A DNA stretch of 63,985 nt, the filler included, from Octopus bimaculoides (Eukaryota), in the NCBI RefSeq assembly GCF_001194135.2. It is 5 parts of 4 records of this genome, joined end to end, with 100 filler letters (N's around TTAATTAATTAA, not from the genome) between each part and the next. Parts side by side here need not be neighbours in the genome. Positions count along the whole stretch, not along the records: positions 1 to 14,509 come from NC_068983.1; positions 14,610 to 34,307 come from NC_068981.1; positions 34,408 to 48,092 come from NC_068996.1; positions 48,193 to 62,872 come from NC_068981.1; 1 more part is not named here. One strand, given 5' to 3'. The position numbers and the translations under genes are program-made. The notes below the pieces were generated by a model, which worked only from the letters and a program-made list of their open reading frames with translations, searched no databases and had not been told where the DNA came from. Position 1 is the first letter of the stretch; each line of letters starts with the position of its first letter. Of the stretch, positions 14,206 to 61,049 are shown piece by piece.

Positions 14206-14433
14206 CATCTATACCAGCGGTTCCCAACCTTTTCACAGTGGTTCCTAGCAGTGGCTCCCAGCCCTTTTATTTATATATATATATATATATACCGGAGTAA
14301 GCACATGAAATGTGCAACAAGGTAGAAAAAAGAGTACTCAAATACCAGAGGTAGAGTAATATGCTTTATTTAAAAGCAGCAGAAATATAACAAAAGACTG
14401 TTACTCTGAGTTTCACGTTCCCGTTCATCGAAA

Positions 14434-14473
14434 ACTGTCCGATGAACGGGAACGTGAAACTCAGAGTAACAGT
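14434..14473 (+). ncRNA. Minimal type I hammerhead ribozyme motif
   Basis: ACTGT-CCGATGA-ACG(GGAA)CGT-GAA-ACTC(A)GAGT-A-ACAGT: helix I, core (U4C variant), helix II, GAAA, palindromic helix III and a GUA cleavage triplet. Confidence 0.7.
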
Positions 14474-14509
14474 CTTTTGTTATATTTCTGCTGCTTTTAA
14501 ATAAAGTAT

Positions 14510-14609
14510 NNNNNNNNNNNNNNNNNNNNNNNNNNNNNNNNNNNNNNNNNNNNTTAATTAATTAANNNNNNNNNNNNNNNNNNNNNNNNNNNNNNNNNNN
14601 NNNNNNNNN
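14510..14609. other. Artificial scaffold-join linker N44-TTAATTAATTAA-N44
   Basis: Exactly 100 bp, with a six-frame stop 12-mer at 14554-14565. Identical at four sites. Confidence 0.95.
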
Positions 14610-57899: not shown

Positions 57900-58450
57900 A
57901 TTCTTCTGTGTCTATTTTATCTTTAACTTGTTTCAGTCATTTGACTGCGGCCATGCTGGGACATCGTCTTGAAGGGTTTTAGTCGAATAAATTTACCCCA
58001 AGATTTATATCTTTAAAGCCTAGTACTTACTCTATCGATCTCTTTGCCGAACCGCTAGTTACGAGGATATTAACACACCAATACCGGTTGTCAAGTAGTG
58101 GCGGGGGACAAATACAGACACAAAGATACACACACACACACACACACACACACACACACACACACACACACACACACACACACACACACACACACACACA
58201 CACATATGTGTGTGTGTGTGTGTGTCTGTGTCTGTGTTTCTCCACCTCCACTACTTGATCACCGGTGTTAGTGTGTTTATATCCTATATATATATGACGG
58301 GCTTCTTTCAGTTTCCGTCTGCCAAATGTCCTCGCATGGCTTTTGTCGGCCTGAGGCTACAGAAAAAGACACTTACCCAAGGTGCCATGCAGTAGGACTG
58401 AACCCGGGACTATGTGGTTGGGAAGTAAGCTTCTTACCACACAGCCACGA
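57900..58450 (-). mobile_element. SINE family B with expanded internal (CA)/(TG) arrays
   Basis: Head and 3' modules separated by microsatellites. Confidence 0.8.
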
Positions 58451-59769
58451 AGAACTCCGAAAAACATAAATAAATCAGGCAGTCTTCGTCTTTCTCCAAA
58501 CGTTATTATTTATAGCTTTATCTTCTTCGAGCTTCACTGTTAAAAACGATTTATTCAACGTCTCTCGAACTTTCTAAATTCTTATAATGTAAACAATGTA
58601 CAATTACCTGTGATAAGAACAAAATTTTTTAAACAGAGGAAGAATTTCGCAGAGTTTGTTTGATCCAGTGGAAGAACATCCATCATGTTTACAGAATATG
58701 TGGGTTCTTGTCACACGGGCACCCATCGACATTTTCTATCTAAGAGGATTTTATTAAACCCAGTATTTACGCGTTATTATTCACAGCTTCATCTATTTCG
58801 AGTTCCTCCATTAAAAACAATATATTTCATTTATTTATTCTCAAGTCGAGTTCTGTGAACATGACATTCCATTCCAAACGAATTAGTTCGACGATAGTAT
58901 CACTCTTGGTGTATGTTTAGTATTAAACATGTCAGTAGGCGCACCAGCAAACTAGTCACTCGAGTAATGATCTTCCTAAATTACACGGCTGCGAATTAAA
59001 TAATTAGCGTAGATGACGAGACCAAACAATGCGGAAAGAGTTCCACTGCTTAACTGTTTCTAAGTGTTTTCCTTGTTTGATCTGTAAATTCGTCACTTGA
59101 CAACACATTACCCAGTCATTGCCACACGCAAAACATATCTCAGAATATTATCTAACGACTTACTAGTATTTCCTTGTTTGGTTTGCATAGTGTGTCACAT
59201 TATTACACATCATTCACCGCCAAACACACATCTCCACCCTCTCTCTTTTCTTCACTCGATGCATATATATATATATATATATATCAAATTAATAGCACAA
59301 AACAAATTCAGATACAAAAATAGCAATAGAAGTCCAAGGGTATTTACCGTCAATATTATTCGGTTGATATATCATGGTACATTCTATATATATACAGTCT
59401 ATAACAAACATGTATATTTAAGGCGGCGAGCTGGCAGAAACGTTAGCACGCCGAGCGAAATGCAAAGCGGTATTTTGTGGATCTATTTTAAAACGGGGGC
59501 CACATTTTTCATTAATGTTTTACGTAGTGTTTTTGGTACGGAAAGATTTTCAAACTTCGTATACTTATCTATTTTGTGTTATAGAACAGAAAAATATTTT
59601 TGTATTCGAATTTATTTCATGTAAAAAATTGTCTTATTTCGATAATTTCAACCAATCACTGACAAGTATTCAGTTGTTTATATTTACTCCTTTGGCTGAT
59701 TAAGCGATGTAAAGCGTATTTAATCTCCATACCTTCGTTTTATTTGCTTTCTTCATTTTAAATTTGCTT

Positions 59770-59805
59770 TAACCCTAACCCTAACCCTAGGGTTAGGGTT
59801 AGGGT
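59770..59805. repeat. Telomeric-like (CCCTAA)3-(TTAGGG)3 palindrome
   Basis: taaccctaaccctaaccct|agggttagggttagggt, running into an N gap. Confidence 0.8.
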
Positions 59806-61049
59806 NNNNNNNNNNNNNNNNNNNNNNNNNNNNNNNNNNNNNNNNNNNNNNNNNNNNNNNNNNNNNNNNNNNNNNNNNNNNNNNNNNNNNNNNNNNNNNN
59901 NNNNNNNNNNNNNNNNNNNNNNNNNNNNNNNNNNNNNNNNNNNNNNNNNNNNNNNNNNNNNNNNNNNNNNNNNNNNNNNNNNNNNNNNNNNNNNNNNNNN
60001 NNNNNNNNNNNNNNNNNNNNNNNNNNNNNNNNNNNNNNNNNNNNNNNNNNNNNNNNNNNNNNNNNNNNNNNNNNNNNNNNNNNNNNNNNNNNNNNNNNNN
60101 NNNNNNNNNNNNNNNNNNNNNNNNNNNNNNNNNNNNNNNNNNNNNNNNNNNNNNNNNNNNNNNNNNNNNNNNNNNNNNNNGAACCTAATAATGTTTATGT
60201 ATGTATGTAAATAGGAATACAAAAAATGGGACAAGAACGCAAAACATCCAGACAGACGATAGAAAAAAGAAGGATGTGTCATTCGGAATTTTTCTTTCTT
60301 CAGTCGATTTCCAGATTATCTGTGCCATTTCGGGTGTGTGTGTGTGTGTGTGTGTGTGTGTGTGTGTGTGTGTATACATGCACACATATACAAGGCAGTG
60401 AGCAAGCAGAGTTCGAATTTCGCCGACGTCGATTTTGTCTTTCATCCCTTTCGAAGTCGATAAAAGAAGTTACCAATAGAGCACTGGGATCGATCTAATC
60501 GACTTATCCCCTCCCCAAATAACGCTGACCTTGTGCCAAAATTTGAAACCGATAACTACATATCGGTTATATAAATACATATATGTACATACATGTACTT
60601 ATATATTTATATATGTACTTATATACATATAAGCACATACACAAATGTGCCTTTGAGAGAGGGGAGGGAGAGGGGGGAGAGAGAGAGGGTGAGAGAGAGA
60701 GAGAGAAAGAAGTTTATTGAAACCGGATGCTTATCCCACGATTCGAGTTTTAAGCCTGAAGAGTGGTGTGACGCGAAACTCGAGATAACTTTTCAGTTAT
60801 CCCAATATTTTCCTGTGTTTTTATTTTTCAGTCAGTAAGGTGTGACTTGTGGGAAGTTTAGTTGTTATTTTCAGCACGTCAAGTAACCATGTGACTGATC
60901 CTTCATTTACTTCAATCCAACTATTTACGAGAAATTCGTATATTTATGTATTTGACCAATGTTGCCATTTCAATCTCGAGTAGCTTGAGTAAGTGATCCG
61001 AAACAACGAGTCGACATTTCAGAGAAACGTGCATGATAACGACAACGGT

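Follow-up and report, generated by a model that had tools for sequence, protein, structure and literature searches.

The window analyzed here is a 63,985-nt stretch of the Octopus bimaculoides genome (NCBI RefSeq assembly GCF_001194135.2), composed of five parts of four records joined end to end. It carries a dispersed set of type I hammerhead ribozyme motifs, three foldbacks in which some of these motifs lie, and a decayed fragment encoding the reverse transcriptase (RT) and endonuclease of a Penelope-like element (PLE). Overall, about seven PLE hammerhead insertions are supported in 64 kb. The features, with positions counted along the window, are as follows.

14433–14474, plus strand: type I hammerhead, the best site (covariance model E = 3e-5; 34.3 bits)
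14292–14431, minus strand: second copy of that PLE 3′ end, inverted, with its hammerhead cut short at C4; a tail with the Hydra-clade motif follows and ends on (TA)n
5912–5964, plus strand: hammerhead with A9U, a 7-bp helix II, and helix III ACUA-U-UAGU (E = 1e-3; 33.8 bits)
20200–20672: two old inverted copies of a single PLE-like 3′ end, arranged head-to-head (190 of 254 columns identical) and each bounded on the outside by (TA)n
20530–20585, plus strand: hammerhead with U4C, C.A at 10.1/11.1, and helix III ACAGGUGU (28.1 bits; 0.02 expected)
20280–20335, minus strand: inverted partner of 20530 with helix I broken (homology to 20530; 21.6 bits)
21041–21103, minus strand: hammerhead with an intact CUGACGA core, a 6-bp helix I, and one extra base before GAAA (27.5 bits)
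21593–22752, plus strand: decayed Hydra-clade PLE RT-endonuclease fragment with a stop at 21776 and a frameshift near 22255
51531–51903: foldback with 166-nt arms that continue helix I of the apex hammerhead (152 of 172 columns identical)
51695–51739, plus strand: foldback-apex hammerhead with a CUGAGGA core, helix III ACUGUACGGU, and a 1.1/2.1 mismatch (30.2 bits)
57126–57205, plus strand: decayed hammerhead in a small palindrome (23.1 bits), then a one-mismatch Hydra tail motif and (TA)n
57448–57483, minus strand: minimal hammerhead with A6U and helix III ACGU (29.7 bits)
60752–60793, plus strand: hammerhead-like core without U16.1 or helix I, indistinguishable from chance

Hammerhead motifs in the window

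The initial annotation had named seven of these motifs, and all seven are present where it placed them. Its positions mark the edge of helix I; we refer to most sites by the start of the core, that is, 14439(+), 20331(−), 20534(+), 21097(−), 51699(+), 57479(−), and 60756(+). Two further hammerheads, 5916(+) and 57130(+), had been missed. The canonical order of hammerhead elements claimed for the motifs was found in part: the order and the helices are there, and no named site is free of deviations. U4C occurs at 14439, 20534, and 20331, A6U at 57479, and an extra base before GAAA at 21097. Site 51699 has a mismatch at 1.1/2.1, helix I is broken at 20331, and 60756 lacks U16.1. The palindromic nature of helix III was borne out from the sequence. 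At the best site, helix I spans 14434–14438 and 14469–14473, the core CCGAUGA (U4C) spans 14439–14445, and the palindromic helix III spans 14459–14467, with cleavage predicted after 14468. For 14439, the predicted fold of the dimer hammerhead reached −17.0 kcal/mol, compared with −2.7 kcal/mol for the monomer. The sites are mutually unrelated except for 20331 and 20534, in agreement with the view that several families lie behind the motifs.

Scoring against hammerheads from outside PLE loci

In an Rfam search of the window at E ≤ 10, the 150 matches listed (of 154) did not include a hammerhead family. A strict descriptor was passed by one of the seven named sites (14439), a level also reached by 1 to 3 of 200 shuffles. 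With a relaxed descriptor there were no zero-deviation sites, and 3 were observed at the top score versus 0.70 in shuffles (3 of 60 shuffles). As an outside yardstick, we used 79 Hydra-clade PLE loci (L001 to L079) from metagenome contigs that are related to the PLE fragment in the window, drawn from the best 80 of 367 matches. These loci yielded 73 hammerhead descriptor hits, and 47 distinct plus-strand hammerheads were retained as a training set after duplicates, minus-strand hits, and low-scoring hits were dropped. Their alignment, which was fitted to structure, covaries (score of 0.63 versus 0.19 when shuffled).

A covariance model built from the 47 hammerheads matched 14433–14474 at E = 3e-5 and 5910–5966 at E = 1e-3. 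Matches at 21041, 51693, and 60750 had E values of only 2, 5, and 1.9, respectively, and 20280, 20530, and 57448 gave no match at E ≤ 10. One more match, at 10636–10675, is a core that adjoins an (ATA)n run and lacks helix II; it was rejected. We also computed a log-odds score with weights from the same 47 hammerheads and a free loop-II length (training range, 25–46 bits; 100 shuffles); its layout was chosen after the sites were seen, and the weights alone are external. Six sites (14439, 34.3 bits; 5916, 33.8; 51699, 30.2; 57479, 29.7; 20534, 28.1; and 21097, 27.5) each had ≤0.02 matches expected per shuffled window, and the best score in the reversed window was 21.1. Sites 57130 (23.1 bits, 0.2 expected) and 20331 (21.6 bits, 0.45 expected) were intermediate, and 60756 (19.3 bits, 1.5 expected) was at chance level. 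An excess over shuffled sequence, to which the initial annotation had tied its claim, thus holds for five of the seven named sites; the case for 20280 comes from its being homologous to 20530, and 60752 scores no better than chance. Searches of viral and prokaryotic collections gave no match to the 14439 core pattern.

PLE 3′-end anatomy

Most of the sites resemble PLE 3′ ends, in which a T-rich leader, the hammerhead, and a short tail are followed by (TA)n. Six sites (5916, 14431, 20331, 21097, 57130, and 57479) have (TA)n, or TA before a gap, 110–144 nt after the core. At 5916, which has a T-rich leader, (TA)n lies 144 nt after the core; at 57479, TA plus a gap lies 125 nt after it; and 21097 has a short tail that runs into a TA-rich repeat. 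T-rich leaders were found at 5 of the 10 strand-sites examined (0.49–0.56 versus 0.32 for the window). Immediately upstream of the 21097 hammerhead, 21097–21148 and 21166–21217 form a 52-nt direct duplication (88%).

Of 39 outside hammerheads, 26 have a tail motif, RCTC-N8-16-YGAGYRCT, behind them; this motif was present in 0 of 1932 control tiles. Its sole exact match in the window (14333–14357, minus strand) lies 42 nt behind the 14439-family hammerhead. A one-mismatch version lies behind 57130 at 57180–57205(+) and is one of eight relaxed matches in the window. The motif is hairpin-like and conserved, lies 27–55 nt behind Hydra-clade hammerheads within an optional tail between two 3′ end points, and is a candidate RT-binding or initiation element. 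Copies of the 14439 family finish on (TA)n at 14292 or at 14359, and these two 3′ end points represent the two-end "tail" signature of PLEs. The 14439 family has the Hydra-clade 3′-end features that are testable here, namely a hammerhead, the tail motif, and a (TA)n end. In addition, the helix III palindromes and the mismatched 10.1/11.1 pairs agree with the Hydra-clade hammerheads in File S2 of Craig et al. (2021; PMC8557442) and with those of the 79 outside loci. At one of these loci (L009, 2373–2548), a single (TA)n run has received two 3′ ends of Hydra type, which differ from each other and are inserted tail-to-tail.

Foldbacks and inversion junctions

Foldbacks around some of the motifs, as previously proposed, are real (14361–14508, 20200–20672, and 51531–51903). 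In 14292–14508, the arms are identical at 69 of 70 positions; the left arm alone has a one-sided "tail" (14292–14359), and the right arm stops at the gap, at about the short end point. This arrangement fits a head-to-head inverted, 5′-truncated copy with a one-sided tail. In predicted folds, the ribozyme is buried in the duplex in 14292–14508 and 20200–20672 and sits at the apex in 51531–51903. A search for RNA data sets containing 51480–52400 listed none, an outcome that carries no weight in either direction. The apex structure, a foldback with a hammerhead at its tip, recurs at the 5′ end of an autonomous Hydra PLE from a metagenome (L014).

The sense copy begins at helix I in three of five resolved head-to-head junctions (14432, 51695, and L014, not 20427 or L036). 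We treat this as a lead only, because it was this geometry that drew attention to the two window cases, and the edge of the reference used for alignment confounds the joints found in reads. Reads of the 14439 family, described below, contained 11 opposite-strand joints, which were scattered and all on one side. Eight of the 11 fell at 14426–14431; this clustering was not used as support, as 14431 is where the reference stops matching the family and 9 of the 11 joints were RNA-only and may be library artifacts. A nearby inverted arm was found at just 1 of 76 hammerheads in the outside loci, and in three others the 5′ pseudo-long terminal repeat (pLTR) starts 80, 165, and 703 nt upstream of the hammerhead. 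Literature searches on PLE junctions found nothing on junctions at helix I.

The 14439 family in DNA and RNA reads

We aligned to 14292–14447 the contigs of two DNA runs, which come from two studies, and the raw reads of two RNA runs, ~6% of which were used. In the DNA runs, 4385 and 4825 contigs aligned. Summed depth, which is not copy number, was ~1–1.7 million on the arm and 770–1050 beyond the junction, a ratio of more than 1000:1 that leaves <0.1% of the depth at the junction. The family is extremely abundant, with some 10^4 copies as a rough inference. Because <0.1% of family depth crosses its junction, the foldback is not the unit of this family. Upstream loose ends consisted of heterogeneous, T-rich, 3′-UTR-like sequence (agreement of 0.61), and no defined 5′ end was seen.

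The loose ends behind 14430 run on with C3 and helix I, and no G>A was present at 14430 among the rows of the variation table that were listed; U4C is therefore the family-wide state. Among the 73 descriptor hits from the outside loci, one (in L055) shows the same change. U4C lowers activity in vitro, yet it is present in an infectious viroid (PMC3088659). Among the rows listed, the most variable hammerhead base was the unpaired center of helix III, 14407 (18% + 23%, two alternatives). Position 1.3 of helix I varied from A to G in 12–15% with a wobble pair kept, the helix II CpG varied in ~3%, and the listed core sites varied in 0.03–0.13% of the DNA. Conservation of the core across family copies, which had been set as a test of the ribozyme assignment, thus holds among these rows in the one family checked.

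RNA reads of the family came equally from both strands, and 75–84% continued into unlike sequence, that is, read-through. No pile-up of ends was found anywhere, including the 5′ ends suggested at cleavage sites, in the two standard RNA-seq runs, which are a weak assay for them, and a check for circular RNA in these libraries gave a single short 22-nt back-joint. A>G changes were found at 22 and 22 places and T>C changes at 16 and 14 places in RNA, versus 3 and 1 in DNA. Hammerhead base A17 was changed in 18–21% of RNA reads versus 0.06% in DNA, and A15.1 in 6–11% of RNA. The excess looks like ADAR (A-to-I) editing of embedded copies, with the caveat that the DNA is from other individuals and that some differences come from one highly expressed divergent locus. 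A literature search combining hammerhead, ADAR editing, retrotransposon, and cleavage site found nothing.

The PLE RT-endonuclease fragment

The PLE fragment reported alongside the motifs is real and extends over 21593–22752. Judged from its sequence, this fragment alone holds the remains of an RT with a C-terminal GIY-YIG domain of the Hydra-clade type. By manual count, 52 of 90 residues are identical to Hydra-1_Obim. The linker (CxCX5C) is decayed, with CxC kept and the third Cys lost. The RWK/DKT motifs of full-length homologs fall in a region absent from the fragment, and its own 3′ end and hammerhead are gone. Pfam recognized neither the fragment nor the full-length homologs. The 21097 hammerhead was considered as part of this adjacent fragment and rejected; the orientation fits, and no sequence evidence links the two. 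None of the motifs can be assigned to the fragment. Located 150 nt behind it on the opposite strand, 22899–22910(−) has 12 nt identical to the core and helix II start of the published Hydra-1_oBim hammerhead; this stretch is without GAAA and scores at chance level (15.3).

Other repeats in the window

The window is repeat-rich, gapped animal DNA. A foldback at ~22917–23992, which spans an assembly gap, ends in inverted repeats and is flanked on either side by an 8-bp direct repeat, AGTCGTTC; it is a hAT-like miniature inverted-repeat transposable element (MITE) unrelated to the hammerheads. Decayed retroelement open reading frames (ORFs) lie at 26551–27792(−), 43492–44037(−), 29877–34086(−), 34422–34730(+), and 9823–11834(−) and appear by eye to be LTR-type integrase-like pieces and non-LTR RT pieces. 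That at 34422–34730(+) matches RT/PHD-type octopus proteins. The best named matches of a long interspersed nuclear element fragment in the window were O. bimaculoides proteins (73% identity). Families resembling short interspersed nuclear elements (SINEs), 100–300 nt long, are dispersed at 5164–5330, 14042–14208, 35735–35901, 48780–48946, 50622–50788, and other places, and a 37-nt minisatellite lies at 47857–48092.

Origin of the hammerhead motifs

These motifs are decayed type I hammerheads that probably mark 5′-truncated 3′ ends (pLTRs) of several PLE families, at least one of them of the Hydra clade. The PLE RT-endonuclease probably inserted them at (TA)n, and the foldbacks would be one-off inverted copies made at insertion. 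The initial annotation had likewise proposed PLE-type minimal hammerheads of several families, likely placed by PLE RT, and motif anatomy, the tail motif, and (TA)n support that part of it. From published PLE biology, the RT-endonuclease would nick (TA)n, and target-primed cDNA synthesis would begin within the tail, from either of two internal sites. The RT would copy back through the uncleaved hammerhead and terminate early, and a second, inverted copy would often be added by self-priming or a template jump. Parent ribozymes are predicted to cleave only as dimers formed through their palindromic helices III, and no activity is predicted for copies that are enclosed in long foldback duplexes. 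For one PLE, insertion in vitro is reported to need no hammerhead cleavage.

Hydra-clade PLEs (Craig et al. 2021, PMC8557442, Files S1 and S2) share with the window a type I hammerhead near the 3′ end, (TA)n insertion, an octopus host, 9-nt palindromic helices III (ACUC-A-GAGU and ACUA-U-UAGU), and an inverted 5′-truncated copy, as in Penelope-13_HM. No description from octopus had been known to the initial annotation; File S2 already tabulates the octopus PLE hammerhead Hydra-1_oBim. The hammerheads and RT fragment of the window belong to families other than Hydra-1_Obim, and the family-wide U4C of 14439 is not in the File S2 rows. A literature search on hammerhead ribozymes in octopus found Craig et al. 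as the only relevant work among the papers listed, and the main text of a 2026 O. vulgaris repeat annotation is without any mention of hammerhead. The minimal hammerheads of metazoan PLEs (Cervera and De la Pena 2014, PMC4209133) share the short palindromic helix III and are dimer-dependent; thousands of solo copies and opposite-strand pairs 100–700 bp apart were reported. The available sections of that paper do not mention octopus, and U4C is not among the variants they describe.

Inverted pLTR insertions (Arkhipova et al. 2013, PMC3846280; Frangieh et al. 2024, PMC11167929) resemble the foldbacks in their head-to-head inverted copies, a tail on one arm, two RT start sites, and the lack of RNA-seq ends at the cleavage site. 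In those studies, junction palindromes of inverted 5′-truncated copies were ascribed to self-priming. The tail is ~67 nt here compared with 30–40 nt there, and their junctions, in the sections available, are not placed relative to the hammerhead. Because inverted copies, solo motifs, opposite-strand pairs, and self-priming palindromes are all published, the foldbacks are best read as insertion products.

Several observations weigh against this origin. The covariance model backs just one of the seven named sites (14433–14474), the lower scores of the relaxed descriptor are at shuffle level with little excess overall, and minimum-free-energy monomer folds were no better than shuffles in 7 of 9 cases. 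Sites 51699, 20534, 21097, and 57479 are without the Hydra tail motif. The read analysis covered one family (14439), its summed depth does not equal copy number, and its variation table holds 43 rows beyond those listed. Finally, the parents may be non-autonomous.

Such parents would be short, linear, SINE-like, non-autonomous hammerhead PLE derivatives moved in trans by a Hydra-clade RT, with the foldbacks still by-products. PLE derivatives of this kind have been published, cis-acting pLTRs are reported to suffice for trans-mobilization, the 14439 family is very abundant, and its hammerhead is unlike that tabulated for Hydra-1_oBim. We nevertheless consider this origin unlikely: the upstream loose ends are heterogeneous 3′-UTR-like sequence with no defined 5′ end, and heavy 5′ truncation of autonomous PLEs, as described in the literature, accounts for solo motifs.

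Self-replication of the hammerhead foldbacks as non-coding families, retrozyme- or MITE-like, as first proposed, is quite improbable. Three foldbacks occur in 64 kb, and the arms of 51531–51903 extend helix I so that the ribozyme stays exposed; set against this, the junction has <0.1% of 14439-family depth, the 11 opposite-strand joints are scattered on one side, the arms are unequal, the ribozyme is buried in two of three cases, no target-site duplication was seen by eye, and inverted copies are a published PLE outcome. Non-LTR retrozymes (PMC7229834; bioRxiv 10.64898/2026.07.22.740005) share non-coding DNA with type I hammerheads and a PLE link, but as described there they are direct tandem repeats with a hammerhead per unit and circular RNA, whereas no tandem array covers any site here. 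That the motifs other than 14439 and 5916 are chance matches is scarcely credible: the covariance model gave E ≥ 1.9 or nothing for the six named sites and the lower relaxed-descriptor scores equal those of shuffles, but four of the six score 27–30 bits with ≤0.02 expected, and each of those four either has (TA)n at a spacing like that in PLEs or occupies the apex of a foldback.

Within an origin from truncated PLE 3′ ends, a more speculative idea, which we hold as doubtful, is that the hammerhead sets where PLE cDNA stops and inverts, octopus having a ~10^4-copy family that spread with fixed U4C and undergoes A-to-I editing of its transcripts at the base of the cleavage site. Once the 5′ strand of helix I had been copied, the cDNA end would fold onto the copy of the 3′ strand and snap back, giving hairpins with a hammerhead at the apex. 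If junctions do cluster at helix I, the ribozyme fold would take part structurally in PLE inversion, a step that has yet to be explained. The window adds uncatalogued octopus PLE families, which Repbase or Dfam may already hold, and shows the density that PLE hammerhead relics can reach. The 14439 family, very abundant and with fixed U4C, could show, as a natural experiment, whether the spread of PLE hammerheads depends on efficient cleavage.

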